A stretch of 64,000 bases of DNA from a virus. The stretch's first letter is position 1. Every line of letters begins with the position of its first letter. A program made the position numbers and the translations under genes. The notes under the pieces were generated by a model. The model did not search any database and was not told the DNA's origin. It saw only the letters and a list, made by a program, of their open reading frames with translations. The stretch is from positions 30,392-94,391 of the IMG/VR virus record IMGVR_UViG_3300032053_000003; one strand, given 5' to 3'. Below, in pieces: positions 171 to 46,502 of the stretch.

Positions 171-1262
171 TTATAACCCCTCTCTGGCAAACCTCTTTAT
201 GTAGACATTTACTTCATCATTTGACATTATATCAGGGAGTGTTGCAGTGAATGCATCGATGTTCTTGTCCATCTTGAGTTCCTCCAGGTGGATAAGAACA
301 TCGGTCTCTGTCTCAAAGAGAGCACCATCCTCCAGAACCTTGAAGGCTTTGATCTTTACATAAGCCTTGCCATTACTCTTGGGGAAGGATGCTCTTATGA
401 CTTTGTTGACTGCTGCTTGAGCTGCTATGCCGTTTTTTGCAAAGGTGTCTAACCCAAGCTTATGGCTTAACTCAGGATCAAGAGAGGTACCTATTTCCAC
501 ATTATAGAAGTCAGCTATATCCTCTTTTTTCAGCAGTTTGTTCCTGATAAGATACCTGGCTATCCTTGTCAATATACTCTTTTTGGTCTTACCTTCCTGT
601 ACACAGAGCTTGAACTTAGCAGCTAACTGCTCACTTCTTATGAGATCATCAATGATGGAAGGTCTGATTTCTCTCATAAAGTTACTCATCATCGTTCTCC
701 TACCCTGGTACCTGCCCCCATCAGTTCCCTTAATCCTTTCAAACATATCATTTTCAGATATCCATGGGTGCTCTTTCCTCATATGTTTTTCAATAATACC
801 CATGTATACCTTAGCCAAGACTCTGGAGCCTTTTATGGTGGGTCTTGTAGAAGGCTCAACTACCTTGTTCGTTCCCAAATACTCTCTAATAGAGGTCAGA
901 CTGCCAGGGTAACCTCTCCCACGGATGACCTTAAATACTTCTGCAGCTTTTACATTTGGGAACATAGATAACAAGGAATCTATGTCATCAAAGTAAGGTT
1001 TAATCAGACCAAACTTTTTGACATGTGTGTTTCGTATGGGGGTAGGATCTGCTTTGGCCCTCTGTAATATATCTTCCTCTGGCATCTTACATATCTTCTC
1101 AACCGTCTCATGGGCATGACCTGTTTTTTGTGCTATCTGGTTGAAGTTTATGCCTTCTCCGTGATGCAAGTTCCATATAACAAGCATCTTTTTTCCTGGG
1201 ATCATATTAACCCTCCATTGTAGAACTTTGTCTAACTTAGCTTTTGTTCTTATTCCAAGCAA
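171..1262 (-). CDS. hypothetical DNA-binding protein with tandem helix-turn-helix-like segments (INFNQIAQKTGHAHETVEKI; AAEVFKVIRGRGYPGSLTSIREYL)
   Basis: 363-aa ORF, codirectional packing; HTH-like patterns by eye only. Confidence 0.5.
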   Translation of the reverse strand: MLGIRTKAKLDKVLQWRVNMIPGKKMLVIWNLHHGEGINFNQIAQKTGHAHETVEKICKMPEEDILQRAKADPTPIRNTHVKKFGLIKPYFDDIDSLLSMFPNVKAAEVFKVIRGRGYPGSLTSIREYLGTNKVVEPSTRPTIKGSRVLAKVYMGIIEKHMRKEHPWISENDMFERIKGTDGGRYQGRRTMMSNFMREIRPSIIDDLIRSEQLAAKFKLCVQEGKTKKSILTRIARYLIRNKLLKKEDIADFYNVEIGTSLDPELSHKLGLDTFAKNGIAAQAAVNKVIRASFPKSNGKAYVKIKAFKVLEDGALFETETDVLIHLEELKMDKNIDAFTATLPDIMSNDEVNVYIKRFAREGL

Positions 1263-12634: not shown

Positions 12635-12934
12635 TTATGCATCCATGTATTTTGGTGTGGCTTCTTTGATCTTTTCTAGGATACTTATAGTTAAATCCTT
12701 CCCCTGTAATATTTTTAAAGCATCTGGTCTATCCAGTAAAATAAAGACAAATTTACTTACAATCTTTTCCGAGTAACCGAGTATAGGATCAGTAATCAGT
12801 TGCTCCTTGAAAAATTCAATATCCTCTGGGGTCACAACACGAGTAAAACCGCAGATGTGCTCAATAGCTATACCAGAAGGGTAATGGCTAATAGCTGCTA
12901 TGAAGGATATAAATTCTTCAGGTAGATGATTCAC
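12635..12934 (-). CDS. hypothetical protein
   Basis: 99-aa ORF. Confidence 0.45.
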   Translation of the reverse strand: MNHLPEEFISFIAAISHYPSGIAIEHICGFTRVVTPEDIEFFKEQLITDPILGYSEKIVSKFVFILLDRPDALKILQGKDLTISILEKIKEATPKYMDA

Positions 12935-13377
12935 TGAGGCTCCACCTTCTTCAGACCAAAGAGCTTGGGTTCTTCCAGAGGTAACTTGACAGGTTTTATC
13001 TCTATGTGCTCAAGAATGAGGTCCAGCAGTTTGTTCATAGGGATGTAGTCTCTCCTGTACACTCTTCCTGGTTTGCCAGGTACAGGGGAAGATTGCCAAT
13101 TGGAACAACCAGATGGGTCTGAAGAGCCTGAGGTGCCTCCCACTCCCGACATATAGTAAGGATTAGGAACAGCATCTTCTTCTTCCTTCCAGTCATAGGT
13201 TACCTTATCAGCACCTAAGATGTTGTGATTGGTGGAGTCATTTTTGTGGAGGATTCCGATCTCTTTCCACAACTCTGGTACCTTACCTTTGTTGATCTGC
13301 CTTATAAACAGCTCATTCCTGGCACACCACAGGATCAATGAAAAGATTATAAAGCCTTCTATCCATTCCATGTTCAT
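12931..13377 (-). CDS. hypothetical membrane-anchored protein (N-terminal TM helix)
   Basis: 148-aa ORF; IEGFIIFSLILWCA hydrophobic segment. Confidence 0.5.
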   Translation of the reverse strand: MNMEWIEGFIIFSLILWCARNELFIRQINKGKVPELWKEIGILHKNDSTNHNILGADKVTYDWKEEEDAVPNPYYMSGVGGTSGSSDPSGCSNWQSSPVPGKPGRVYRRDYIPMNKLLDLILEHIEIKPVKLPLEEPKLFGLKKVEPQ

Positions 13378-13439
13378 AGGTTCTCCTTAGGTGTCCTTTT
13401 TTAAGTCATTATATATTTTATTAATGTCTTTTGACTATT

Positions 13440-13837
13440 TCATTTTATTAGATCCACTATATCACCCATAATATTGGCAACCTCATGGAATCCTGAGATC
13501 CCATGTCCACGATCCCATGCATAGGAGAAGGTTTTGTAACGCTTGGGGTGGTCTTCAATTTCATAATACTTGAAGAGGTCTTCTTTGAACTGGTTTATGG
13601 CAATAGCTTCCCTTTTAAGGTAGTCCTGTTTTATTGCCTTATTAGTTTCTAGTATCTTATCTACATTCTCTTTGACATTCTTACCACAGTTGGGACAGAA
13701 ACGGATTGAAGTTGTATGTACTCCATACTTAATTCCACACGGTTCTGGACATTTATAGTAGGTTAGTACCTCTCGGTTAGTACCTCTCCTCTTTTGACTT
13801 CATAAACCCCTTGCCTGATGTTATCAAAAATATCCAT
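13440..13837 (-). pseudogene. zinc-ribbon protein gene frameshifted by a 14-bp tandem duplication (restored product 127 aa: MDIFDNIRQGVYEVKRGEVLTYYKCPEPCGIKYGVHTTSIRFCPNCGKN...)
   Basis: ATG at 13837 with AGAGAGG SD gives a 24-codon ORF ending at 13763. Tandem copies of GGTTAGTACCTCTC lie at 13761-13774 and 13775-13788. Deleting one copy fuses the frame to the start-less 120-codon ORF ending 13440, giving exactly 384 nt. Confidence 0.6.
13761..13788. repeat. perfect 14-bp direct tandem duplication GGTTAGTACCTCTC x2
   Basis: read directly from sequence. Confidence 0.9.
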
Positions 13838-13851
13838 TATTTTACCTCTCT

Positions 13852-14244
13852 TCAGCTGAATTCCTCATCACAAAAGCAGTAACCTTCAGGGTCCTTCCAC
13901 ATCTCTCTTAAACGACTCTCATGGTGTTCCTGGCAGTAATCGTAGTGATTGATCATGCTCTTTCTCTCAGGAGCCTCTACGTTATCTATAAGGTCAGCAA
14001 GAGGCACTTCTGTTCCATACTCATTGAAGATCTTACCTTCTTCTGTTATTAACCAGTCTTTCCAATCCCTCCAAGACAGGATCTTAACCCCCAGATCCAC
14101 TTCTGGATCAGGTAAGCTTAGAAGATTGTCCCTGTACCCACGGAACAGGAACTGCCATCCTGCACTGGACTTTCCAATATGAGCTTCATTATACCTATCA
14201 CATAGGAGGCATATGTTGTATCTCCAATAATAATTAGTGCCCAT
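13852..14244 (-). CDS. hypothetical protein
   Basis: 130-aa ORF. Confidence 0.5.
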   Translation of the reverse strand: MGTNYYWRYNICLLCDRYNEAHIGKSSAGWQFLFRGYRDNLLSLPDPEVDLGVKILSWRDWKDWLITEEGKIFNEYGTEVPLADLIDNVEAPERKSMINHYDYCQEHHESRLREMWKDPEGYCFCDEEFS

Positions 14245-14435: not shown

Positions 14436-14643
14436 CCAGATCAGAAGGGGTGATCAAGCTTATTCTGAAATCAGATGCATTTGTTTCACTACTGTTTCCA
14501 GCATCTTTCACTAAGAAAAAATCTAAAGGTTGATAAGGTAGACGTACATATGGATTACCATCGTTCCAGCAGGTAATCTCATCATTACCCCTTTTTGCCT
14601 TCATCTCTTTCTTTAGGATTTCATATAGTTCTTTTACTATCAA
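14398..14643 (-). CDS. hypothetical protein
   Basis: 81-aa ORF. Confidence 0.4.
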   Translation of the reverse strand: MIVKELYEILKKEMKAKRGNDEITCWNDGNPYVRLPYQPLDFFLVKDAGNSSETNASDFRISLITPSDLDALEIEKLLQKK

Positions 14644-14936
14644 TATGGCCTCTCCTCTTCACCATTTGTTGATACTCTGGTGCCTTGCCATACACCTCTG
14701 TAGGGTACTGCTTCACCATCAATGTAATGAAAGTTCTCCTTCCACCTGCCTTGGATTCTAACCCGATCCAGTCCCAGAGTCATGATCATTCTGGACCCTG
14801 TGGATGCAGTCTGCATGCTCTTCAGCCATTTCTCAACCTGACTAATGGTCATCTTCTTAAACAGGCTTTCGATCTGACTAATGGTCGTTTTGGGGTCTTT
14901 TTTGGGGTCTTTTTTGGGGTCTATCTTATCTTCCAT
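14640..14936 (-). CDS. hypothetical protein with KDPKKDPKKDPK tripeptide-like repeat (start moved to Met at 14936)
   Basis: GGAGG SD 7 nt upstream of ATG at 14936; ORF-track start 15011 would overlap upstream gene by 86 nt. Confidence 0.45.
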   Translation of the reverse strand: MEDKIDPKKDPKKDPKTTISQIESLFKKMTISQVEKWLKSMQTASTGSRMIMTLGLDRVRIQGRWKENFHYIDGEAVPYRGVWQGTRVSTNGEEERPY

Positions 14937-16230
14937 TGGAGACCTCCTTCTGAGCAGCACGTTTCTTCCTGGGCTTTGCAACAATGGGTGGGTGGGTTTC
15001 ATTCGTCTCACGGTTAGGCTGAATCATATTGGGACCTGACTCGTGTGTGTACACAATCTTTTTGTCCCAGTAGAACGGTTCGATGTAGTTGGTATGACCC
15101 AGAACAGTCATGGCATAGGGTTTGGATACAGGGAGACCTGCTATGGACCTTGCAACACACCACCAATGAGAAAGGAAGATCTTACCTACCTCATTTTTGG
15201 CTGCATTTTTGATGTGGTTATCAGGCCACTCAGGACGTTTCTTGGTCTTTTTCTTAATCCTATCCTGGAATACAGCATAGTAAGGGCTGTGTTTGTTTGC
15301 TTCCAAACTGAGTTGGTGCCCTATTGTGTAGGCAACGGTCCTACCTTTTGTGGACCAGTTGTTCTTGATTCCCTTTGCTCTCTTGGGCTTCATCCTGGTT
15401 GTAATCTCAGTCCAAGGAGTCTTACATACAGAACAGCAGACCTCATTTTCTGCCTGTTGGATAGGTTTTTTGTAGGTGCTGCACTTAGGGCAACACTTCA
15501 CAGTATGAAGACCCAGGTAAGCATGCCATTTGGACACATTGGGAAAATCTTTAAGCTCTTGACGGTAGGTTAACAGCCCCTCGTTCTTAGCAGCTTTGCC
15601 ACATTTGCTGCATATCAAGGCACCCTTCTTTCCAGGTCTGCCTTCAAACTCGTCATCATCCAGATCTATCTCTTCCACAGCCTCCATACCTTCCTCGTTC
15701 TTCCTCTTCAGATCCCCACCACAAGTCTTACAGATGGGGATGAACCGATAGTAGAAGAGGATGATAAGGGCTGCAACGGTATTGACTCCAATACCAGGGA
15801 CCTTCTTTGCCCATTCCCAGATATCCCACTTTCCCATTCCCTCAAGGTGCCTTTCGATGTCATCAGTAATACGGCTTATGAGGGTCTTGGTACCAGGACT
15901 TTTCACCTGAATTCTCATACGATGTTGGATGATCTCACCCTTGTATTCAAAGCTGAAATCCACCCACTTCATTATGTTCTTGGACTTCAGGATGTTGTCA
16001 TCGATGTCAGTGAAGATGCTCCCTTCATCATCAGTCTCATCACTGTTTTTAGATTCACTAAGTCCAGGGATCTGATGTTGTCTTTGCAGGATGCCTTTGT
16101 TGCATTTGACATAGCTGTCACGGTTGTTGACCATGTTCTTAAGCAGGACAACATCCTGAGAATTCAGTGGGGGAATCGTGTTTCCGTAGGCATCAGGTTT
16201 TAGTGGGGGTATAGTTCTGTGGTTGTTCAT
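14926..16230 (-). CDS. HhH-motif plus four CxxC zinc-ribbon protein with IS110-family (Transposase_20-like) C-terminal signature
   Basis: WEWAKKVPGIGVNTVAALIILFYYRF resembles the IS110-family HhH block (..IPGIG..TA..LLAEIGD..RF); AYLGLHT resembles AYAGLAP; four CxxC pairs are inserted. No recognisable DEDD N-domain. Confidence 0.5.
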   Translation of the reverse strand: MNNHRTIPPLKPDAYGNTIPPLNSQDVVLLKNMVNNRDSYVKCNKGILQRQHQIPGLSESKNSDETDDEGSIFTDIDDNILKSKNIMKWVDFSFEYKGEIIQHRMRIQVKSPGTKTLISRITDDIERHLEGMGKWDIWEWAKKVPGIGVNTVAALIILFYYRFIPICKTCGGDLKRKNEEGMEAVEEIDLDDDEFEGRPGKKGALICSKCGKAAKNEGLLTYRQELKDFPNVSKWHAYLGLHTVKCCPKCSTYKKPIQQAENEVCCSVCKTPWTEITTRMKPKRAKGIKNNWSTKGRTVAYTIGHQLSLEANKHSPYYAVFQDRIKKKTKKRPEWPDNHIKNAAKNEVGKIFLSHWWCVARSIAGLPVSKPYAMTVLGHTNYIEPFYWDKKIVYTHESGPNMIQPNRETNETHPPIVAKPRKKRAAQKEVSNGR

Positions 16231-17150: not shown

Positions 17151-17470
17151 TTTTTAATAGTAAATCCATGGCATCTTTTGGGAATGCACCAGCATAATAA
17201 GGTGACTTTGTCATACCTGTCAAGGTGACTTTTTATCTGCTTTAGGTAATCCAGTACCTTTGGGTCCCTCAGTCCTACTTCGTAGAACCATACATCATAT
17301 TTTTTACATACCTCATCACGTTGAGCTTCATCATAGAGTACAAAGGGATTACCTACAGGTGTACGTCTATCGATCAAGAAGATCCCATTAACAGGATCAG
17401 GCTTCATCCCATGATGTGCATTGGCTATTATGACTATAAGGTTAGGTTCTTTCATAATTTTCTTATGCAC
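17129..17470 (-). CDS. DUF4326 family protein
   Basis: IDRRTPVGNPF ... LLCWCIPKRCHG matches the DUF4326 pattern (RxTPWGNPF ... CWCxPxxCHG). Confidence 0.6.
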   Translation of the reverse strand: MHKKIMKEPNLIVIIANAHHGMKPDPVNGIFLIDRRTPVGNPFVLYDEAQRDEVCKKYDVWFYEVGLRDPKVLDYLKQIKSHLDRYDKVTLLCWCIPKRCHGFTIKKWLEKPI

Positions 17471-17539
17471 CTGGAGGGACTTGAACCCCCAAACTCCAGC
17501 TTGAAGGGCTGGTGACTTTAACCAATTTGTCTACAGGTG
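17465..17539 (-). tRNA. tRNA, probable anticodon UUC (Glu), unusual C at position 33, no encoded CCA
   Basis: Minus-strand read GCACCTG-TA-GAC-AAATTGGTTAAA-GTC-A-CCAGC-CCTTCAA-GCTGG-AGTTT-GGGGG-TTCAAGT-CCCTC-CAGGTGC-A. Acceptor stem 7/7 bp, anticodon stem 5 bp, T-loop GTTCAAGT. Folded by hand. Confidence 0.6.
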
Positions 17540-17578
17540 CGTGTTGAGTGTAACACAATATTGCTATTAGAATAAGCA

Positions 17579-34298: not shown

Positions 34299-35759
34299 AT
34301 GTCTAAGTTTATTCCAGTATCTGGACCTTTAACCACTACAAGCCCTACTATCGATTCTCTTGATAATGTGAGGGTTAATGGTGTTCCAGGATATTACCCT
34401 GCTCTACTTGAAGGTGATGCTATCTTCGTTATTACTCCTGATGAAAGAACTTTCACCTATCGGGTAGAAATTAGATCCCCCAAGCCACCTGAAGATGTTC
34501 CTAATGTAATTTACCCTAAGTATTCCTCTGGTAATACTCCATATACTGGCAATATTTGTTTTATTCTTGCTGGTACTTCGGGTGGTACAGGCTCTTCTGG
34601 AACGAGTGGTTCATCTGGAATGGGTACATCAGGTTCTTCGGGCACCTCATTTTCTGGAATTACATCAGGGACTAGTGGTAGCTCAGGGGAGGGTGCAGAT
34701 GGAACTTCTGGTACCTCTGGCAATGGGTCTTCAGGGACTTCTGGGTCTTCAGGATCAAGGGGATCTAGTGGCACTAGTGGATCGTCTGGTATTGGCTCTT
34801 CTGGTACTTCTGGCTCTTCTGGTCTTTCGGGAATAGATGGTTATGATGGTACATCTGGCACCAGTGGCTCAAAAGGTGATGTAGGGTCCAGTGGAACCAG
34901 TGGGTCTTCAGGTTCAAGTGGTTCAAGGGGCACCTCAGGCACTAGTGGTTTAAGCGGTTCCTCAGGCACCAGTGGTACAGGATCTTCGGGGACTAGTGGT
35001 ACAGGATCTTCGGGGACATCAGGATTAAGTGGTTCTTCAGGGACTTCAAGTGTTGGCTCCTCTGGTACATCAGGTAATAGTGGGTCTTCTGGCACCAGTG
35101 GTTCAAGAGGCACTAGTGGGTCTTCAGGAACATCTGGATTAGGGTCTTCAGGAACCAGTGGCTTTGGTACTTCTGGTACGTCAGGCTTTGGAACTTCAGG
35201 TACATCAGGGTCTGGGACTTCAGGAACCTCTGGATCAGGTACCAGTGGAACCTCTGGAGTCAATGGTACTTCTGGGACAAGTAGTACTGGCTCTTCAGGA
35301 ACTAGTGGTTTAAGTGGGTCAAGTGGAACATCTGGTTTTGGTTCATCTGGTACATCAGGTCTCTCACCTCTTAATTATTATAATATTGACTCCACTACTG
35401 GTTATGAAACTCAGGTTTGCGCCACAGGTTCAGGGGTTACAATAAGTAAAGTAGGAAGTCTTTACACTTGGAGTATACCTTCAGGGGTACGTCTCATTTC
35501 TTGTAGCATAAGAGTTCCTGGAAGTTCACTCACTAGTGGTCAGATAATAATGGACTACTCTACTTTGGGGACTATGACCTGGACTAACAGGTTACTGGTA
35601 GGACCCATAAAGGCTTGGAGAGAGGACTCTGGTGCTCAGGTTACTATAACAGTCCAAGATCCAGATATTGAGCTGAATAGATGGTACCTTAGTGGAATGA
35701 GTGTCACTACTACATCATATGATTTGCTCATTTATTTCCATCAGAGAGTAACCTCATAA
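34299..35759 (+). CDS. Ser/Thr-rich Gly-X-Y (collagen-like) repeat fibre protein with C-terminal globular domain
   Basis: about 270 residues of GSS/GTS triplets (GTSGSSGTSGS...) then a non-repetitive C-terminal domain; AGGAGA SD. Confidence 0.7.
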   Translation: MSKFIPVSGPLTTTSPTIDSLDNVRVNGVPGYYPALLEGDAIFVITPDERTFTYRVEIRSPKPPEDVPNVIYPKYSSGNTPYTGNICFILAGTSGGTGSSGTSGSSGMGTSGSSGTSFSGITSGTSGSSGEGADGTSGTSGNGSSGTSGSSGSRGSSGTSGSSGIGSSGTSGSSGLSGIDGYDGTSGTSGSKGDVGSSGTSGSSGSSGSRGTSGTSGLSGSSGTSGTGSSGTSGTGSSGTSGLSGSSGTSSVGSSGTSGNSGSSGTSGSRGTSGSSGTSGLGSSGTSGFGTSGTSGFGTSGTSGSGTSGTSGSGTSGTSGVNGTSGTSSTGSSGTSGLSGSSGTSGFGSSGTSGLSPLNYYNIDSTTGYETQVCATGSGVTISKVGSLYTWSIPSGVRLISCSIRVPGSSLTSGQIIMDYSTLGTMTWTNRLLVGPIKAWREDSGAQVTITVQDPDIELNRWYLSGMSVTTTSYDLLIYFHQRVTS

Positions 35760-35771
35760 GGGGGATATGGC

Positions 35772-38700
35772 ATGTCATTAGCATTTGCTGCCAGGTTAGT
35801 AATAAATAATGTCGTAGACCTGGGGTCCAATATTTATGAAATAACAGGTAGGGTTTACGATTTTTCTATTTCTGGATATCTTGCTTCAGATGTTCAACTT
35901 GGGGATGTTATAATAGATGAGAATTCAGAGACTGGTGTAGTTAATAGGTGGAAGATTACTAATATAGTTTTAGCCAGTATTCGTAATCTTGTTTGTCATG
36001 TCGTATGGGACGATGAAGGTATAGAAGACCCAGCTGGTCCTCAGATTTGCCCAGCTGCTATTTGTAGTACATCTATTAATGTAAAGCTGGCTGAAGTACC
36101 TACTAGTACGTATTCCTTGCTTAGTGAGACCATCCTAACCAGAATTAATAATATCAATAATAGAGTCTTTATTGATCCTGCTATTACAGCAGGAACTAGT
36201 GGGTCCAGTGGTACATCTGGAGAGGGAGGAGGAACCAGTGGTTCTGGGTCGTCCTCTGGGACTAGTGGGATTTCTGGAGCCGATGGCTCCAGTGGTACTA
36301 GTGGTATTGGTCTTGATGGGTCTTCAGGTACGAGTGGAGCCGATGGGTCAAGTGGAACTAGTGGAGCCGATGGGTCAAGTGGAACCAGTGGAGCCGATGG
36401 AGTTGATGGGTCTTCAGGAACCAGTGGTATTGGTCTTGATGGTACATCAGGAACAAGTGGTGATTGGAGAAATGGGGTATATAACGAAATAATATCTGCT
36501 GATTCTGATGATTGTTATGTTACTCCAAATGATTCTGCAATTGATATAGGTCCTAGCCTAGTGGCTATGGGGAAGGGGGAGTTTAGTTTAGGTGCTGGTT
36601 TCAGATGGAATGGTTTGAATATACCGCAAGGTTCTCTTATTACAACTGCTTATGTGTCTTTAACCTCTGCTGATGATATTTCTAATGAAGACTGTATTAT
36701 TCAAATAAAAGGTGAAGCATCTGATAATGCAATTACTTTTTCTACCTATGAAGATTATGCTGCTCGATCTTTAACTGCAGCATCAGTAGCTTTTATTTTT
36801 CCTCCATCTACAGGAGATGTTGTTTATACTACTCCTGAATTAAAAACAATTATTCAAGAGATTGTGAATAGATCTAGTTGGCAAGTAGGGAATTCTATTG
36901 TTTTGTTTTTTGATGATAATGGTTCAACAGCATATGCACAACGAAATGTGTGTGATTTTGGGGCAAATCCTACAAAAGCTGCTAAACTTTATTTGCAATG
37001 GGACTCTTCTAATGGGCCTCAAGGATTACCTGGTGTTGATGGCACCTCAGGTTCAAGTGGGTCTTCAGGTACCAGTGGAGCCGATGGAGCTGATGGGTCA
37101 AGTGGAACCAGTGGGATCGATGGAGCTGATGGGTCTTCGGGAACCAGTGGTATTGGTCTTGATGGGTCTTCAGGAACCAGTGGAGTTGATGGAGCCGATG
37201 GGTCAAGTGGTACATCAGGTTTTGGGTCTTCAGGGACCAGTGGTATTGGTCTTGATGGGTCTTCAGGTACGAGTGGAGCCGATGGCTCCAGTGGGACCAG
37301 TGGTATTGGTCTTGATGGGTCTTCAGGTACGAGTGGAGCCGATGGGTCTTCAGGTACGAGTGGAGCCGATGGGTCAAGTGGAACTAGTGGAGCCGATGGG
37401 TCAAGTGGGACTTCAGGATCTTCAGGTACTTCAGGAGTAGATGCTCAGGCTACTAATTCTGTCTATGTTGATAGGGCTAGGGGTGACACATACACTCCTA
37501 CAGGAAGTGTAACCAAACCTTTTAAGACCCTCCAGGCTGCATTTGATTATATCGGACAGCCAACATTACCAGCTGACTTTAATGATGCTGCTAAATTCGG
37601 TTATAATGTTTATGTAGCTCCTGGGATATATACTGAGACACTAACTATTCCAGCTCGTCCTTCCATTAATGTATTTGTTGATGGTGTAAAAATAGTAGGT
37701 AATGTCACTTGGAATTTTGATGGCACTACGTTAACAGGTGCTTTAACACATCCAGAATTAGCTTTTATTGGTGATAATTTCCGTAATGCCTACAATACAG
37801 ATGGGCATCCTTTGACATGTACTATTGTAGGAAACCTTACAATAACACAGATTGCTGGTAGTTCAGGGAGTGGTGCTAGAGGACCCATTCTTATGCTTCG
37901 TGGTGCAGGTGTTGTTGGTAACATTACTTATAATACTAGTGGTACAGCAACAGGTTATAAATCTTTTACACAAATGCGTGATAGTATCTATACTGGTACT
38001 TTATCTACTGTGGGAGCAGGAGTTTCTAATTTACTGTACATTAGCAATTGTGATACCTCATCTTCCTATGCTGTAGGAGCCATTTCTGGAAATGTTTCTT
38101 TATATGTCCTTAGGAATGTACGGTTAGTTGGTACAGTAGTTTCTACTTCTAATAATGGTGGTAGGTGGTTTAATGTAACTTTTGGTGCTGTTGCTCATGA
38201 TTTTACAAATTGTTCTGGTACATTTAGTTGTGATGCCAATTCATATTCTAGTTTTTATGCTAATGTAACCAATAAGGGAGCAGGGGTATTCACGCTGATA
38301 GATGAAGCTAAAGGTGTGAAGAATGATTCAAATGTAACTGGTGTTTCTGTTAAAGATGCATTGAATAATCTGTTAGCTTTGGTAGGTACAAGTGGAACTT
38401 CAGGTACCTCTGGTTCCAGAGGTGTTGATGGATCAAGTGGGACTTCAGGGGCTGGGTTACCTGGAACTTCAGGTACCAGTGGAGCTGATGGGTCAAGTGG
38501 AACCAGTGGAGCCGATGGAGCTGATGGGTCTTCGGGAACCAGTGGGATCGATGGAGCTGATGGGTCTTCGGGAACCAGTGGTATTGGTCTTGATGGGTCT
38601 TCAGGAACCAGTGGAGTTGATGGAGCCGATGGAGCTGATGGGTCTTCGGGAACCAGTGGTATTGGTCTTGATGGGTCTTCAGGAACCAGTGGTATTGGTC

Positions 38701-40511
38701 TTGATGGGTCTTCAGGAACCAGTGGTATTGGTCTTGATGGGTCTTCAGGTACGAGTGGTATTGGTCTTGATGGGTCTTCAGGTACGAGTGGTATTGGTCT
38801 TGATGGGTCTTCAGGTACGAGTGGTATTGGTCTTGATGGGTCTTCAGGTACGAGTGGTATTGGTCTTGATGGGTCTTCAGGAACCAGTGGAGCTGATGGA
38901 GCCGATGGGTCTTCAGGAACCAGTGGAGCTGATGGGTCTTCAGGAACCAGTGGATTTGGAACTTCTGGTACGTCAGGAATTTCAGGCTCCAGTGGCACCT
39001 CAGCTACTTCTGGAGGAGGGGCAGGGGATGGTACTATTCTTCTTGGAGAACTTCCTTCAGGACAGATCTATGATGGTTTGATAACCCTTACGGAGACTGA
39101 TCAGGTGAATGAATCTATCAATTGGATTAATGAGATGCTTATTCTGATCTCCCCTGCAAAGCCTGAGATGCTCACAGGGGATGCTCTTGTTCTTACTGGT
39201 ACTGCTAAATATAGTGCTAAGGTGCCTTCTGGTCTTGTTGCAGCTTGGTATCTTGGTGGTGTGTCAGCTGGGGATACCATCACTGATTACGTTACAGACA
39301 ATACATTCCGTCTGACAACACCATCAACTTCAACAGAGTTTTATAACGGGATGTATACAGCTCCTGGTGGGACTTTGAATCTGTATGCAGGTGCCTCTAT
39401 TATCGATACCATCTCTACTGCAACAGCTGGCTCTTCTACGATGTTGACAGTATCTGATGTTGCAACTTACAACTCTATCTGGAGCAAAGCTAATGCTTAT
39501 GCAGATATCACTCAGACTGCTGAGGGCTATCTGTATTACAATTTTAATCACTCACTTGCTGGTGTAACAAACAATCTTGTAGTCAGGTATGATGATGTTC
39601 ATTCCACTCCTTCATTCTCATCAGCTCTTTCCATTGCTGAGAATACACCAGTCTGGAAGTATTTGTCAGGCATTCAGTATTATGGTCAGGGAACTACTCT
39701 AAATATTTCTTATACAGCTGCTGCTGGTATATTTACAAAATGTTATCATCCAACAGCAGTGGCAGTTATTTCCCAGAATGCTGTTGCCTTTGCAACCTTC
39801 AACTACAATCCTGCATCAATACCTGCTTATAACGATAACTGGATAGTGACTGGTTACACAGTGACATTGAGTGTGGCAAATAAGTCTTCTAATTCACCTA
39901 CTATTTCAGTAACCTTACAGAAGCCCACAGGTACCCAGGTTGTCTCTACTGCAAGCCTTGCTAAGAAACTTTGTACTTATGGTAACTATTCCACAACAAC
40001 TATAGAGTATTTCTTTGATGAGGCTTACAGGCTTGAGATAGGTACTGACACTGCTTGGACTTCATCAGCTACTTTGATAGATGACAATGCTCAGGTTCGT
40101 AATGGCTTTTTGCAGTGGCCTGATTCAGGGGATTACCCTACTGGGTTCTCAGGTGATCAGGAGTACCAGAGAAAGTTTACAAAAGTATCAGCATCCACTG
40201 GTACTTTAACCTTCTCAGGTATTACTTATTCTCAGATTTCTGCTTACGGTACTGGGGACCTCAATATTCTCCTTTATCTTGATACTGATGCCATATGGTT
40301 TGATCTTGGTCAGCTTGTTGGTTTTGGTGGGAATGGTTCTACACGAGCTTTGGCTATAGGTGCTCAGGGTTCAGGTTCAGGTGGACTTGTTAATTGGTCA
40401 ATAGGTACTTACAGTACAGGACCTTCTGGTTCAGGAAACTTCGGTAAATATAGGCTTGTCATTATCTTTAGGAACACCAACAGAACAATTACCCAGATAG
40501 TGTCTGCATAA
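35772..40511 (+). CDS. giant fibre/tailspike protein (1579 aa): collagen-like GXY blocks + right-handed beta-helix (pectate-lyase-fold-like) domain + C-terminal domains
   Basis: Multiple GSSGTSG[AI]DG blocks. The segment KPFKTLQAAFDYIGQPT...YNVYVAPGIYTETLTIPARPSINVFVDGVKIVGNV matches the N-terminal cap of pectin-lyase-fold depolymerases. Confidence 0.7.
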   Translation: MSLAFAARLVINNVVDLGSNIYEITGRVYDFSISGYLASDVQLGDVIIDENSETGVVNRWKITNIVLASIRNLVCHVVWDDEGIEDPAGPQICPAAICSTSINVKLAEVPTSTYSLLSETILTRINNINNRVFIDPAITAGTSGSSGTSGEGGGTSGSGSSSGTSGISGADGSSGTSGIGLDGSSGTSGADGSSGTSGADGSSGTSGADGVDGSSGTSGIGLDGTSGTSGDWRNGVYNEIISADSDDCYVTPNDSAIDIGPSLVAMGKGEFSLGAGFRWNGLNIPQGSLITTAYVSLTSADDISNEDCIIQIKGEASDNAITFSTYEDYAARSLTAASVAFIFPPSTGDVVYTTPELKTIIQEIVNRSSWQVGNSIVLFFDDNGSTAYAQRNVCDFGANPTKAAKLYLQWDSSNGPQGLPGVDGTSGSSGSSGTSGADGADGSSGTSGIDGADGSSGTSGIGLDGSSGTSGVDGADGSSGTSGFGSSGTSGIGLDGSSGTSGADGSSGTSGIGLDGSSGTSGADGSSGTSGADGSSGTSGADGSSGTSGSSGTSGVDAQATNSVYVDRARGDTYTPTGSVTKPFKTLQAAFDYIGQPTLPADFNDAAKFGYNVYVAPGIYTETLTIPARPSINVFVDGVKIVGNVTWNFDGTTLTGALTHPELAFIGDNFRNAYNTDGHPLTCTIVGNLTITQIAGSSGSGARGPILMLRGAGVVGNITYNTSGTATGYKSFTQMRDSIYTGTLSTVGAGVSNLLYISNCDTSSSYAVGAISGNVSLYVLRNVRLVGTVVSTSNNGGRWFNVTFGAVAHDFTNCSGTFSCDANSYSSFYANVTNKGAGVFTLIDEAKGVKNDSNVTGVSVKDALNNLLALVGTSGTSGTSGSRGVDGSSGTSGAGLPGTSGTSGADGSSGTSGADGADGSSGTSGIDGADGSSGTSGIGLDGSSGTSGVDGADGADGSSGTSGIGLDGSSGTSGIGLDGSSGTSGIGLDGSSGTSGIGLDGSSGTSGIGLDGSSGTSGIGLDGSSGTSGIGLDGSSGTSGADGADGSSGTSGADGSSGTSGFGTSGTSGISGSSGTSATSGGGAGDGTILLGELPSGQIYDGLITLTETDQVNESINWINEMLILISPAKPEMLTGDALVLTGTAKYSAKVPSGLVAAWYLGGVSAGDTITDYVTDNTFRLTTPSTSTEFYNGMYTAPGGTLNLYAGASIIDTISTATAGSSTMLTVSDVATYNSIWSKANAYADITQTAEGYLYYNFNHSLAGVTNNLVVRYDDVHSTPSFSSALSIAENTPVWKYLSGIQYYGQGTTLNISYTAAAGIFTKCYHPTAVAVISQNAVAFATFNYNPASIPAYNDNWIVTGYTVTLSVANKSSNSPTISVTLQKPTGTQVVSTASLAKKLCTYGNYSTTTIEYFFDEAYRLEIGTDTAWTSSATLIDDNAQVRNGFLQWPDSGDYPTGFSGDQEYQRKFTKVSASTGTLTFSGITYSQISAYGTGDLNILLYLDTDAIWFDLGQLVGFGGNGSTRALAIGAQGSGSGGLVNWSIGTYSTGPSGSGNFGKYRLVIIFRNTNRTITQIVSA
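38658..38888 (+). repeat. perfect 33-bp x 7 coding tandem repeat (GIGLDGSSGTS G units)
   Basis: GGTATTGGTCTTGATGGGTCTTCAGG(A/T)AC(C/G)AGT repeated 7 times head to tail. Confidence 0.9.
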
Positions 40512-40512
40512 T

Positions 40513-40845
40513 ATGAGTAAGGCATACCAACTTCTTTTTGAAATATTGAACCCTCACTACCATCTTCGTTTACGAGAGGGGATAGAGGTTAGGAAGGTTC
40601 TTAAATCTACTGATAATGGTAGTTGGGTAGAGAAGGAAGAGATCTGGGGTCTTAATGGTAATACAGATGATGACACCCCAATGATTACTGCATACACTCC
40701 TTCTGGTGATTATCTCGGTGATCCTGATTTTGCTAAAATGTTAGTTAAGAAAGGGATCACTCAGTTTGAGAATACTGAGCCAGATCACTGTGTTTGCTCC
40801 ATAGGTTTTAATCCTGAGAAAAGAATGGAGTGGGTGGAGTCATAG
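40513..40845 (+). CDS. MSKA-tag family protein (MSKAYQLLFEILNP...)
   Basis: 110-aa ORF starting 1 nt after the fibre stop. Confidence 0.5.
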   Translation: MSKAYQLLFEILNPHYHLRLREGIEVRKVLKSTDNGSWVEKEEIWGLNGNTDDDTPMITAYTPSGDYLGDPDFAKMLVKKGITQFENTEPDHCVCSIGFNPEKRMEWVES

Positions 40846-40886
40846 GGCTATATTTTCTTTTGGTATAGGATCAAAAGTTAAAAAAG

Positions 40887-41273
40887 GTGACTGTGGCTAC
40901 ACTCCTGAAAAAGGTGAGTGGGAAGCAAAAACCATTGAAGATGCCAAACTTATGGCTACAGAGTTTGCAAAAGGAGTGTCGTGATATGAGTAAAGCTATT
41001 GGTCTTCTTATGTTGCTTGAGGATGCATCTATTGTAGATAAGTACAAAGACTCCTTAGCCAAACTTAATTCACCCAAAAGAAAAGAGATTATTAAGGCTG
41101 CTTTTGCCAAGGGTGAGAAGTTTGCTGTGAAGCAGGGCTTGATGAAGATGAACAAAGAAGAGCCACTGGACCCTAAAGAGTATAATGCTCTTCTGGACTA
41201 TATGAGTGACCTTGAAAGAAAACCAACTGCTGTTAAGTCAAAGAGTTTTGCAAGTCGTTTCCTGGCCTTTTAA
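40887..41273 (+). CDS. hypothetical protein
   Basis: 128-aa ORF. Confidence 0.45.
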   Translation: MTVATLLKKVSGKQKPLKMPNLWLQSLQKECRDMSKAIGLLMLLEDASIVDKYKDSLAKLNSPKRKEIIKAAFAKGEKFAVKQGLMKMNKEEPLDPKEYNALLDYMSDLERKPTAVKSKSFASRFLAF

Positions 41274-41293
41274 CTAGATCCTGTGAGGCAATA

Positions 41294-41494
41294 ATGAATC
41301 GTTCAAAAAGACTCTTGGTTCTTCTGCGTGAAGAGAACGAAGATAAAGATGGGTGGGTAGGAGTGGATCTTGATTCAACCTTAGCCTTTTATGATGAGTG
41401 GAAAGGTAATGACTATATAGGGAAGCCAATTCCTGAGATGGTCAAGAAAGTTAAGAGTCTTTTGGATCAGGGTAAGCAAGTTAAGATCATATGA
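41294..41494 (+). CDS. hypothetical protein
   Basis: 66-aa ORF. Confidence 0.4.
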   Translation: MNRSKRLLVLLREENEDKDGWVGVDLDSTLAFYDEWKGNDYIGKPIPEMVKKVKSLLDQGKQVKII

Positions 41495-41682
41495 CTGCAC
41501 GAGTTCATCCTGACAATGAAGATGTAGAAGGTATCAGGGAACTTATTCAGAAATGGTGTGAAGAACATCTTGGTCAGGTTCTCCCTGTTACCCATGAGAA
41601 AGACCACAAAATGATTGAACTTTGGGATGACCGATGCAGACAAGTTATTAAAAATACTGGCAGGTTCATTGATGAGGATTAA
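41491..41682 (+). CDS. hypothetical protein
   Basis: 63-aa ORF. Confidence 0.4.
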   Translation: MTARVHPDNEDVEGIRELIQKWCEEHLGQVLPVTHEKDHKMIELWDDRCRQVIKNTGRFIDED

Positions 41683-41720
41683 TCTCTATAGAATTTACCC
41701 TCATATGGAGGATTTTTTAA

Positions 41721-44700
41721 ATGTGGACTAAGGAAGATCGAAGCTTCAAGACCCTGATTAATCGTAGGACAACTGATTCTACAGGTAAATATTGGTATAA
41801 TGAAGTTTCTGATTCTACGTTAAATGTCCATATCAGTGAGATATGGTCTGACACTATCAATGAATCTCCTGCCCAGGCAGTTATTGATGGTGTTGCAGAG
41901 TTAAGAACTCTTTTCACCTTAACTGAAGATACCACAGTACCTCTTCAGTACTGTTACTACGCATACTCTGGTGATAGGCTTAAAGACTGGATTTCTACAA
42001 AATATGGTAGTGGGTACACTGTTCACCTTTTTGACAATAACAATGTAGAGATAGGTCCTACAAATGCTTGTCAGTGGTTTTTTGACAATCAAACTGGAAT
42101 TTTAACCTTCAATGCTTCTGTTGCTGCTTTTGCCAAGCCTTTTAAGATTACTGGTTATAGGTACATAGGAGCCAAAGGTGTGGGCACCTCAGGTGCTGGC
42201 ACATCTGGTACATCGGGTATCAATGGGTCAAGTGGTACATCTGGTATAGGTTTTTCTGGCACCTCAGGTACATCTGGTGTGGGCACTTCTGGAACTTCAA
42301 GTATTGGTGTCGATGGCTCTTCAGGTACATCAGGTCTTAGTGGCTCAAGTGGTACTTCGGGACCAGGGGGGTCAAGTGGAACCTCAGGTTTCAGTGGTAC
42401 AGCAGGACAGGGATTCAGTTGGGAGAGTCAGTGGACAGCAAGTAAAGTTTACCAAGCTTATGATGTTGTAAAGACTGATTACAATTCTTACGTTTGTCAC
42501 TTGGGTCATACATCAACTTATAATGATCAACCTGGTGTAGGTCCTAATTGGGGTAATTACTGGGATACTTTTACTGAGGGTGGAATAGGATCTTCAGGTA
42601 CATCTGGATCAGGATCTTCAGGAACCAGTGGTTCTGGCTCCAGTGGCTCAAGTGGGTCTTCGGGCACAAGTGGCTCTTCAGGCTCTTCAGGAACCTCAGG
42701 TTCAAGTGGATCTTCAGGGACTGGTTTTTACTGGGATGACATGTGGCAGTATGATCATGCCTATGGAGTAAATGCTGTAGTTGAAAGTCTTAAAAGTTGC
42801 TACATTTGTAAGATATCTCATATCTCAACTTATGAAGATGAGCCAGGTGTTGATGCCTCTGGTCATGACTGGGAAACCTATTGGGATCTTATGGTTCCTG
42901 GTGGTGTTGGGTCTTCAGGTACGAGTGGGTCCAGTGGTTCAAGTGGTTCAAATGGTTCTTCAGGATCAAGTGGGACTTCAGGCTCTAGTGGTAAAGGTTT
43001 CATATGGGGAGGGGAATGGTCTACTTATCGTACTTTTTATACTTATAATGTAGTATCTCATTTGCATCATGGTACTTTTGTTTGTATTCAAGATCATATA
43101 TCTGATCCTATGTATCATGCTTATGAGCCTATGGGTAACGAAGATTGGCAGTCTTACTGGCAACCTTTTGCATTAAGTGGTACATCAGGTTCATCGGGTG
43201 CTAATGGGTCTTCAGGAACCTCAGGCTCAAGTGGAAAAGGATTCACATGGACAGGTGCTTGGATCATAAGTCATGTATATGATGAGACTCAAATGGTGGA
43301 GAATGGTTCAGACAGTTATGTCTGTACTGTATCCCATACTTCAGATGCCCTCAATGAACCTGGTAATGAACTTACAGGTAATGATTGGGAAGATTACTGG
43401 GATCGTTTCCTTCCTGGTGGGAATCCTGGATCTTCTGGCTCTAGTGGCTCAAGTGGTACAAGTGGCTCCAGTGGGTCATCAGGAACCTCAGGCTCCAGTG
43501 GTACAGGTGGATTTAAGTGGGCAGGTGGTTGGTATGAATATCCAAGTCATCTTTATCAGGTTCATGATGTAGTATCTCATAATCCGTGGGGAACTTTCGT
43601 ATGTATTCAGCAGCATCTTTCTGAATATAATCATGAGCCAGAGGTAGATGGTGACTGGCAGTCATACTGGCAGTATTTTGCTCCTGCTGGCACATCGGGT
43701 TCATCAGGTGTTAATGGGTCTTCAGGTACAAGTGGAGTTTCACCTGCATTTACTAGTATTCTCAGTCAGGATCTTGATGCCAATGAATGGAGTATTGTCC
43801 ATCTTAATTCTGTATCATGGAATTCAGAGTACAACTATGGTGATGCTGGAACTTCAGCTACTATTAATTGGACAGAAGGTCAGATCCAGAAGGTAATTCT
43901 TACTAAGCCTAGTATCATAAATTTTAGTAATCCTGTAGGTGTTGGGTATTATCTGATCAGGTTGGTTACTGGTGGCTATAATGCAGTATTTCCAAGTGTG
44001 ATTTGGGCAGGTGGTTTAACTCCTACTTTTGGTGCTGAGGCTGTAAACCTAGTTTACATTTATTTTAATGGTGTTACCTATTATGGTCATGTTTGGGGTC
44101 AGGGAGGCACTTCAGGCACGAGTGGGTCTTGTACGTTTACCAGTACTCTTGAGACTGATCTTGATGCAAATAATCACAATATTATTCATCTTAACTCAGT
44201 TTGTTATAATGCAGAGTATAATTATGGGGACTCAGGCTCGATAGCTACTATAGATTGGACAGAAGGTCAGTTACAGAAGATAGATCTCACTGATGATTGT
44301 GAGATTTCTCTCTCTAATCCTAAGGGTGTTGGATATTATCTGATCAGGTTGGTTACAGGACTTGGTTCAGGTTATGGTTACAATGCAACATTCCCTGATG
44401 TAGTTTGGACGGGTCCTACTCCTGTTTTTGGTGATGATCTTGAGAATGTAATCTATTTTTACTTCAACGGTATTAATTATTATGGTCATGTTTGGGGTAC
44501 AGGTGGGACTGGTGGAACCAGTGGTTCTGGCACCAGTGGGACTTCAGGTGTATCTGGGTCTTCAGGGACTAGTGGGGAGGCTGGAACCTCTGGAGTAGCT
44601 GGCACCAGTGGGACTTCTGGTTCCAATGGTTCTTCAGGGACTTCAGGCTTGATTTCAACTTATCAGTACTCAAATACATATTCTGCTTCTACATCCTGGG

Positions 44701-44870
44701 AAGTTGCTCATAATCTTGCAGCTGATCTTGTGATGGTACAGTGTTTCAGTGATGACTCTCCTAAGAAAGTAATAATGCCCTATGATATTACATTGGATAC
44801 TACCAATCAGTGTACTGTTAATTGGGGTGATTCATCTGTTGCTGGTAGTGTTTGTGTTTTGAAGTTTTAG
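41721..44870 (+). CDS. fibre protein with six CBM5/12-like (chitin-binding type 3-like) carbohydrate-binding repeats separated by GSSGTSG linkers, and duplicated C-terminal domains
   Basis: Six copies of W...Y.aYDVV......YVC...HTS....PG....W..YW (e.g. QWTASKVYQAYDVVKTDYNSYVCHLGHTSTYNDQPGVGPNWGNYWDTF). Two approximately 120-aa C-terminal repeats (DLDANEWSIVHLNSV... / DLDANNHNIIHLNSV...). Confidence 0.7.
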   Translation: MWTKEDRSFKTLINRRTTDSTGKYWYNEVSDSTLNVHISEIWSDTINESPAQAVIDGVAELRTLFTLTEDTTVPLQYCYYAYSGDRLKDWISTKYGSGYTVHLFDNNNVEIGPTNACQWFFDNQTGILTFNASVAAFAKPFKITGYRYIGAKGVGTSGAGTSGTSGINGSSGTSGIGFSGTSGTSGVGTSGTSSIGVDGSSGTSGLSGSSGTSGPGGSSGTSGFSGTAGQGFSWESQWTASKVYQAYDVVKTDYNSYVCHLGHTSTYNDQPGVGPNWGNYWDTFTEGGIGSSGTSGSGSSGTSGSGSSGSSGSSGTSGSSGSSGTSGSSGSSGTGFYWDDMWQYDHAYGVNAVVESLKSCYICKISHISTYEDEPGVDASGHDWETYWDLMVPGGVGSSGTSGSSGSSGSNGSSGSSGTSGSSGKGFIWGGEWSTYRTFYTYNVVSHLHHGTFVCIQDHISDPMYHAYEPMGNEDWQSYWQPFALSGTSGSSGANGSSGTSGSSGKGFTWTGAWIISHVYDETQMVENGSDSYVCTVSHTSDALNEPGNELTGNDWEDYWDRFLPGGNPGSSGSSGSSGTSGSSGSSGTSGSSGTGGFKWAGGWYEYPSHLYQVHDVVSHNPWGTFVCIQQHLSEYNHEPEVDGDWQSYWQYFAPAGTSGSSGVNGSSGTSGVSPAFTSILSQDLDANEWSIVHLNSVSWNSEYNYGDAGTSATINWTEGQIQKVILTKPSIINFSNPVGVGYYLIRLVTGGYNAVFPSVIWAGGLTPTFGAEAVNLVYIYFNGVTYYGHVWGQGGTSGTSGSCTFTSTLETDLDANNHNIIHLNSVCYNAEYNYGDSGSIATIDWTEGQLQKIDLTDDCEISLSNPKGVGYYLIRLVTGLGSGYGYNATFPDVVWTGPTPVFGDDLENVIYFYFNGINYYGHVWGTGGTGGTSGSGTSGTSGVSGSSGTSGEAGTSGVAGTSGTSGSNGSSGTSGLISTYQYSNTYSASTSWEVAHNLAADLVMVQCFSDDSPKKVIMPYDITLDTTNQCTVNWGDSSVAGSVCVLKF

Positions 44871-44955
44871 AATTACCTTACTCTTGGATGGTCTAGGGGT
44901 AAGTCACTTAATACCAAACGCATAATTGGTATCTATCAAATAACGAGGTGAAATA

Positions 44956-46413: not shown

Positions 46414-46434
46414 GTAGTCAACATTTGAAGTACA

Positions 46435-46482
46435 GTGGTGGAGTCTTCGGACTCCACCACATATTCGTCTTTATTCATTCTT
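46435..46482 (+). terminator. rho-independent terminator
   Basis: 11-bp perfect stem GTGGTGGAGTC-TTCG-GACTCCACCAC followed by T-rich tract ATATTCGTCTTTATTCATTCTT. Confidence 0.6.
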
Positions 46483-46502
46483 AAACTTCAGAGGAGTACA
46501 TA

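Follow-up and report, generated by a model that had tools for sequence, protein, structure and literature searches.

A perfect 14-bp tandem duplication that very probably inactivates a small zinc-ribbon gene in an uncultivated jumbo phage

A small accessory gene with a predicted zinc ribbon, located on the minus strand of the 64-kb window (the whole stretch of DNA that was analysed), very probably carries a real, recent, and ordinary loss-of-function allele generated by a 14-bp tandem duplication. All available assemblies of the strain had the two-copy allele as their consensus. The phage has a genome of at least 230 kb, and its products include RtcB, a polymerase, and Mom-like and sigma-like proteins. 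The disrupted gene comprises the following elements:

13440..13837, minus strand: whole disrupted gene; without one of the two copies, a 384-nt ORF encoding 127 aa
13761..13788, minus strand: perfect tandem duplication, 2 x 14 bp, both copies GAGAGGTACTAACC on the minus strand (TRF and direct reading)
13845..13851, minus strand: Shine-Dalgarno-like AGAGAGG, 7 nt 5' of ATG 13837
13763..13837, minus strand: truncated translatable frame, with ATG 13837-13835, 24 codons (MDIFDNIRQGVYEVKRGEVLTERY), and TAA 13765-13763
13440..13760, minus strand: orphaned 3' part of the gene, with 106 sense codons and TGA 13442-13440

Analysis of positions 13761-13788 by TRF returned a period of 14, 2.0 copies, 100% matches, and a score of 56. 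By direct reading of the minus strand, copy 1 (13788-13775) and copy 2 (13774-13761) were each GAGAGGTACTAACC, the comparison of both being identical at 28/28 positions. The chance expectation for perfect 14-bp tandem duplications is about 64000 x 4^-14 = 2.4e-4 per 64 kb; the duplication is exact and is not a product of chance. Collagen-like repeat genes aside, the only other perfect tandem duplication of at least 10 bp in the 64-kb window was an in-frame 12-mer at 14888.

On the minus strand, the TGA of the upstream gene (13854-13852) is followed by AGAGAGG (13851-13845), 7 nt, and the ATG (13837-13835). The repeat unit of 14 nt is not divisible by three and falls near the start of the coding region, within codons 17-25. 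The orphaned 3' part is in the -1/+2 frame relative to ATG 13837; it encodes all four cysteines and the conserved C-terminal helical domain, and its 106 codons contain zero internal stops. The downstream frame is open across 13440-13799 (119 codons) and ends at TGA 13442-13440, its earliest ATG, GTG, or TTG being located only 9 codons ahead of this stop. Deletion of one copy in silico generated an ORF of 384 nt coding for 127 aa. An earlier sequence-only reading of this DNA had described the two perfect copies, the ATG at 13837 with its AGAGAGG and a frame ending after 24 codons, the clean 384-nt ORF obtained by removing one copy, and the open downstream frame devoid of its own start, and all of these were reproduced here. 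The same reading had placed the stop exactly at the junction of the copies; TAA 13765-13763 actually sits within copy 2, 2 nt short of its 3' end. Around the duplication, an 8-mer, GAGAGGTA, occurs three times within 90 nt of the minus strand (13843-13850, 13781-13788, and 13767-13774), in the Shine-Dalgarno region of the gene and once in each duplicated unit, with only two further occurrences in the 64 kb. The duplication thus also doubles an internal Shine-Dalgarno-like sequence.

The restored 127-aa protein has an N-terminal motif, followed by a zinc ribbon and then by a helical C-terminal domain. It carries a predicted zinc ribbon with putative zinc-binding cysteines, encoded by the following segment:

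13686..13751, minus strand: zinc-ribbon segment, with C25 at 13751-13749, C29 at 13739-13737, C43 at 13697-13695, and C46 at 13688-13686

The cysteine pattern had been read earlier as C..C....C..C, and it is in fact C25-X3-C29 ... C43-X2-C46; these two pairs, CX3C ... CX2C, fit the zinc-ribbon layout of CX2-4C ... CX2C on beta-hairpins. The four cysteines, together with F79, were invariant in a 38-member alignment, and these cysteines were found in about 100-109 of 153 family sequences. Pfam Zn_Ribbon_1 (PF13240) was matched by 9 of the 38 family members (E <= 1e-3), and the restored protein itself scored 15.3 bits (E = 0.018), below the Pfam gathering cut-off of 25. AlphaFold2, using an 8-sequence alignment, modelled the restored protein as one unit with a mean pLDDT of 93.1, consisting of a short N-terminal helix, the zinc ribbon, and three helices, with short strands at residues 22-24 and 32-34. 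This confident single fold takes in the N-terminal 21 residues (91-92 for residues 1-20). No Pfam or NCBIfam family covering the C-terminal domain was found, nor any sequence or fold analogue of the restored protein in the PDB. Matches in BFVD were only uncharacterised phage proteins (Atu_ph07, AR9, and others), and the genomic context of the gene in relatives gave no functional hint.

Over its C-terminal two thirds, the restored protein matched phrog_10980 (E = 9.8e-15) and phrog_38032 (E = 2.9e-10). A profile search of 1.84 billion representatives recovered 2,202 family representative clusters at E <= 1e-3, and the best 150 of these were mostly 118-133 aa long and aligned over profile positions 1-127. 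Family members, of about 125 aa, share an N-terminal IxxGxY motif and a C-terminal helical domain with FKxDL...HPK...SxAWxxGHSxG..EV. They occur mainly in large phages, including Bacillus phages AR9 and PBS1, Synechococcus phage S-PM2, Agrobacterium phage Atu_ph07, and Sinorhizobium phage Phosso (XYS97259), and a zinc ribbon is missing entirely from some of them, such as the Phosso protein and L005-L007. The window as it stands contains no single collinear ORF of about 118-133 aa for this family, and removal of one copy provides it. The closest homologue among 5.8 billion protein clusters, P0001, has 128 aa and shows 67% identity over 100% coverage; other collinear full-length homologues are P0002 (124 aa), L009 (127 aa, 40% identity), and the Phosso protein. 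These four proteins align collinearly across the duplication junction, which in the 38-member alignment corresponds to a linker of variable length that separates the IxxGxY motif at the N-terminus from the first Cys.

At the nucleotide level, the contig that encodes P0001 (L002) is 79% identical to the window over the gene. In place of the two copies of the window it carries only one, diverged in sequence (GAGAGGTACTGTCC), and it keeps the end of the upstream gene, the start codon, and a Shine-Dalgarno sequence (AAGGAG at the equivalent position). Through homologues of the upstream neighbour, six syntenic orthologues were found (L022, L023, and L025-L028), none of them with a 14-bp repeat. The gene is intact, with 128-129 aa, in the complete ones (L022, L023, L026, and L027), and in the partial ones (L025 and L028) the frame is open through the junction. 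Distant family members on IMG/VR jumbo-phage contigs are also intact. These comparisons support the one-copy form as the native gene and its inactivation by the duplication. This is in agreement with what had been proposed from the sequence: homologues span the junction collinearly and syntenic orthologues are intact; in related phages, whose comparison had been suggested, the gene is intact and the 14-mer is either single or not repeated at all; and the one-copy ORF, which could have lacked homologues, instead aligns end to end with a large family.

Other searches for relatives were less productive. When segments of 1 kb and 24 kb from the window were compared by megablast with 50,697 phage records, nothing matched, indicating that there is no annotated close relative among these records. 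DNA pattern scans of viral contigs gave nothing, either with a conserved 24-mer or with a junction pattern that accommodated 1-3 copies, and neither did a scan of metagenome contigs with a single protein; a scan of metagenome contigs with a two-sequence alignment recovered only L009 (40% identity). An alignment-based protein search added few sequences, and no names or Pfam domains. Genome-contig matches were all generic zinc ribbons, in Roseburia, Agathobacter, and archaeal MAGs, and not relatives. Two further observations concern the relatives that were found. L002, with the intact gene, and L021, a contig of the window strain, both come from ENA ERZ27247875, so that this one sample contains two related jumbo phages, one with the gene ON and the other with it OFF. 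Besides, related phages contain one or two extra small genes between the homologue of the 130-aa neighbour and the zinc-ribbon gene (L022 2900-3392, L026 1269-1538, and L025 500-673), coding for a CxxC-rich protein of 57-72 aa and an HTH_20/HTH_5 regulator of 89 aa; the 130-aa neighbour directly adjoins the zinc-ribbon gene both in L002 and in the window strain.

Comparison of the restored gene with L002 gave a dS of 0.58 and a dN/dS of 0.31 (0.28 downstream of the lesion), which indicates that the gene evolved under purifying selection during most of the time since the two diverged. With three outgroups, a relative-rate count assigned 12 derived residues to the window and 11 to P0001, and the window lineage is thus not accelerated. 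On the basis of this dN/dS, the equal relative rates, the 28/28 identity of the copies, and the lack of downstream stops, the inactivation appears to be young compared with the divergence from the closest relative known. Recent pseudogenisation, one of the three explanations offered by the sequence-only reading, gave the best fit, with intact relatives, identical copies, a stop-free downstream frame, and a dN/dS of 0.31. A second unusual feature was located in the 3' part of the gene:

13491..13508, minus strand: GHGISG motif patch; the most conserved motif of the family, G-H-S-x-G, is here G-H-G-I-S-G

The extra Ile (+3 nt with respect to L002) is unique to the window among 153 sequences: the five-residue spacing of G-H-S-x-G is kept in 149 of the 153, and six residues are found in the window alone. 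Two CATGGGATC 9-mers lie 14 nt apart on the minus strand, at 13497-13505 and 13511-13519; the extra Ile coincides with the second CATGGGATC, and the 14-nt spacing is the same offset as that of the duplication. The GHGISG motif may represent a second, in-frame templated (quasi-repeat) change in the same gene, and it is compatible with weakened constraint in the window lineage.

Contigs of the same strain were located in an assembly collection by exact look-up of both flanking proteins:

13852..14244, minus strand: upstream neighbour, 130 aa, phrog_12436, synteny anchor
12931..13377, minus strand: downstream neighbour, 148 aa, second synteny anchor

The site was spanned by contigs from ENA ERZ27247916 (230,776 bp) and ERZ27247880 (17,912 bp), Logan SRR9651337 (9,940 bp), and JGI 3300031772 (947 bp), and shorter contigs of the strain came from ERZ27247707 and ERZ27247875. 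All same-strain contigs matched the window with 100.000% identity, in alignments of up to 20,393 bp. Two copies were present in 4/4 spanning contigs (consensus sequences from four accessions and three assembly pipelines), a figure that reflects reproducibility and not independent populations, as these assemblies are clonal and may share one site or partly the same reads; a minority one-copy subpopulation could go unseen in such consensus sequences. In three of the contigs (L029, L030, and L031), gene callers left the flanking genes separated by an identical gap of 474 nt; the fourth, L017, terminates within the gene. The 5.8-billion-cluster collection contained no intact protein of the window strain, the best match having 67% identity. 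Regarding the ends of same-strain short contigs, those of L020, L021, and L017, from three samples, fall within 35 nt (13469, 13485, and 13503, respectively), inside the 3' end of the broken gene, and the L017 end is the first base of the GHGISG patch. Other ends are found at 14449 and 14488 (L017 and L018), 39 nt apart near 14470. The cluster of ends near 13469-13503 falls at a different place from the duplication; strain microdiversity, or simply low coverage, could account for such ends.

The loss of function would have proceeded as follows. In this uncultivated jumbo-phage lineage (contigs of 230,776 and 237,444 bp), 14 bp would have been duplicated in tandem, in the linker that joins the N-terminal motif to the zinc ribbon, presumably by an error of replication or repair; no microhomology was visible flanking the ends of the duplication. 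The additional 14 nt shift the frame, so that ribosomes starting at ATG 13837 would halt at TAA 13765-13763 after 24 residues, and the last 106 codons, devoid of a start codon, would be left untranslated. The gene would be dispensable in the sampled environment, or its loss advantageous, and the allele would be on its way to becoming a pseudogene; a downstream frame that is still fully intact would fit an occasionally used allele too. Precise reversion by slippage might take place at some low rate, as a by-product of any perfect tandem duplication and not as a mechanism. An origin as a transposon-excision footprint was also considered, and it was dropped as pure speculation with no supporting evidence.

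Several other explanations of the two-copy sequence were weighed. That it is an assembly or sequencing artefact of a one-copy genome, as the sequence-only reading had allowed, is extremely improbable. One metagenome-derived sequence alone would be insufficient to decide this, and several short contigs end in or beside the gene; however, the identical two-copy sequence was present in MEGAHIT-style ENA assemblies (two accessions), in a Logan assembly of SRR9651337, and in one JGI assembly. A perfect 14-bp duplication would also be atypical of a base-calling or de Bruijn graph error, and the window contains no other broken genes. This gene is the only long open frame without a start on the coding strand of the tightly packed 64-kb window, which indicates that the assembly is not generally indel-prone. 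Since two copies were found in 4/4 contigs, from four accessions and three pipelines, an artefact is effectively excluded. The same reading had proposed a possible phase-variable switch, that is, a reversible slipped-strand ON/OFF mechanism based on gain or loss of 14-bp copies, by which the gene would be ON with one or four copies and OFF with two or three. Such a switch would profit from a non-triplet unit placed early in the coding region, from two perfect copies whose precise deletion would restore the native ORF exactly, and from an intact downstream frame historically under purifying selection. Nevertheless, we consider it very unlikely, and the consensus sequences gave it no backing. 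Hypermutable simple sequence repeat (SSR) tracts consist of many units (PMC4235727), and those with few units, roughly 2-4 depending on the unit, are classed as proto-mutable to mutable (PMC4235727, Table 1); the window has only two, which places it in the latter classes. Moreover, the copy number was invariant at the consensus level among the four spanning assemblies, the one-copy protein of the window strain was absent from the 5.8-billion-cluster collection, the closest relative has a single diverged copy and the six syntenic orthologues no repeat, and no other out-of-frame tandem duplication was found in the 64-kb window. Nothing in the consensus sequences indicates an evolved genetic switch.

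The remaining explanations accept the duplication as real and assign it a different consequence or cause. A rescue of the protein by recoding would be based either on a -1 frameshift or on a stop-hop from TAC 13768-13766 over TAACC to TAC 13760-13758, at the following site:

13758..13768, minus strand: TAC TAA CC TAC, matched Tyr codons around the stop, hypothetical +8 stop-hop

This is the only arrangement that could bring a ribosome to the downstream frame: the TAA is bracketed by matched TAC codons, and a displacement of +8 leads to exactly the required frame. The predicted product has 129 aa (...GEVLTERYYKCPEP...), and its two extra residues would sit in a linker whose length varies family-wide. 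Matched codons around a stop are the signature of stop-hops in synthetic constructs (PMC5009743). Against such a rescue, which we regard as highly improbable, the TAC..TAC pair follows automatically from the duplicated sequence, and shuffled versions of the local RNA fold just as well (MFE of -32 kcal/mol versus a shuffle mean of -33.7, z = +0.46), so there is no stimulatory structure. Hops of this kind are known to be inefficient when unstimulated. No X XXY YYZ slippery heptamer was found in frame 0 of the whole 24-codon ORF, including the overlap zone, and no two-frame arrangement was found in relatives, all of which encode the protein in one continuous ORF. With neither slippery heptamer nor RNA structure, -1 programmed frameshifting was rejected. 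Also rejected were +1 frameshifting, because the +1 frame is closed; transcriptional slippage, the longest A run being 4; and an independent start of the 3' part, whose first ATG, GTG, or TTG comes just 9 codons ahead of its stop. A 14-nt GT...AG mini-intron with TACTAAC boxes was discarded as well for a phage genome that is prokaryotic-style, Shine-Dalgarno-driven, and tightly packed, the TACTAAC motif on which the idea was based being an automatic property of the duplicated sequence. We likewise give little credence to the two-copy allele being an adaptive, reversible OFF state (a "savior indel"), restored by precise loss of 14 bp and made leaky by the stop-hop; if it were true, the allele would owe its persistence to a cost of the protein in the present host, for instance as a defence trigger. 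Adaptive gene loss, in which a null allele swept as an escape mutation because the protein is harmful in the current host, e.g., by triggering host defence, is very unlikely. It would be consistent with the null allele being the consensus in all assemblies of the strain, with a family otherwise widely conserved under purifying selection, and with the second unusual change, GHGISG, in the most conserved motif, unique among 153 sequences. On the other hand, the family offers no functional information (no Pfam/NCBIfam family, no PDB analogue, uncharacterised BFVD matches), fixation in a clonal population could equally result from drift or hitchhiking, and this explanation differs from that of an ordinary loss-of-function allele in its selective cause only, not in its mechanism.

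Several features of the surrounding genome were also recorded. A perfect in-frame repeat of 12 bp x 2.9 (AAGACCCCAAAA, KDPK x 3) is located at 14888-14922 in a small ORF (14640-15011, minus strand), which lies directly after the stop of a 434-aa ORF (14926-16230, minus strand). This 434-aa ORF contains several CxxC pairs and matches the PHROG transposase phrog_4285 (E = 7.9e-18), and a 363-aa ORF (171-1262, minus strand) matches the PHROG transposase phrog_1157 (E = 1e-10); these two transposase-like ORFs may be mobile-element genes inside the phage genome. A run of large ORFs on the plus strand (34299-50879; 486, 1579, 1049, 485, and 1458 aa) contains 9/18/27-nt periodic Gly-X-Y repeats, collagen-like and G-S/T-S rich, and probably codes for fibre or decoration proteins. 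A single tRNA-Glu (anticodon TTC) was detected at 17466-17540 on the minus strand by Rfam and ARAGORN. The coding strand switches near 31.5 kb, with minus genes before and plus genes after (1-31500 versus 31600-64000), and the cumulative GC skew reaches its minimum near 30 kb, just ahead of this switch.

The killing of a small accessory gene by a frameshifting tandem duplication is textbook mutation biology. The ordinary loss-of-function allele does offer a clean knockout of natural origin, which several assemblies have as their consensus; judging from it, a widespread uncharacterised family (2,202 representative clusters) would be dispensable for at least one jumbo phage in nature. For annotation, the "empty" 474-bp gap at 13378-13851 is better labelled a frameshifted pseudogene than intergenic DNA. 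In addition, an apparent switch in a single sequence can be tested without reads, since exact look-up of the neighbouring proteins finds the strain in other assemblies.

In comparison with known systems, the window shares with the SSR contingency loci of bacterial pathogens (PMC4235727) a non-triplet unit inside a coding sequence; these loci, however, have many copies of units of 1-7 nt, and the window two of 14 nt, without copy-number variation among assemblies, a repeat in relatives, or a second locus of this type. As in bypassing and stop-hops (T4 gene 60; synthetic constructs, PMC5009743), TAC/TAC flank the stop and landing would restore a productive frame, but the gap is of 5 nt and not of 50, no take-off stem-loop or nascent-peptide signal is evident, and the arrangement is not conserved. 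With respect to the phrog_10980 / phrog_38032 family, the window copy differs in being frameshifted and in its unique one-residue insertion in GHSxG. Small tandem duplications that arise by Streisinger-type misalignment frameshift phage genes, the classical cases being T4 rII and lysozyme. Unlike those laboratory mutants, the allele described here is a natural one, without visible flanking microhomology, and is the consensus of an environmental jumbo-phage population; like them, it combines a short non-triplet duplication, a frame shift, an early stop, and the possibility of precise reversion.
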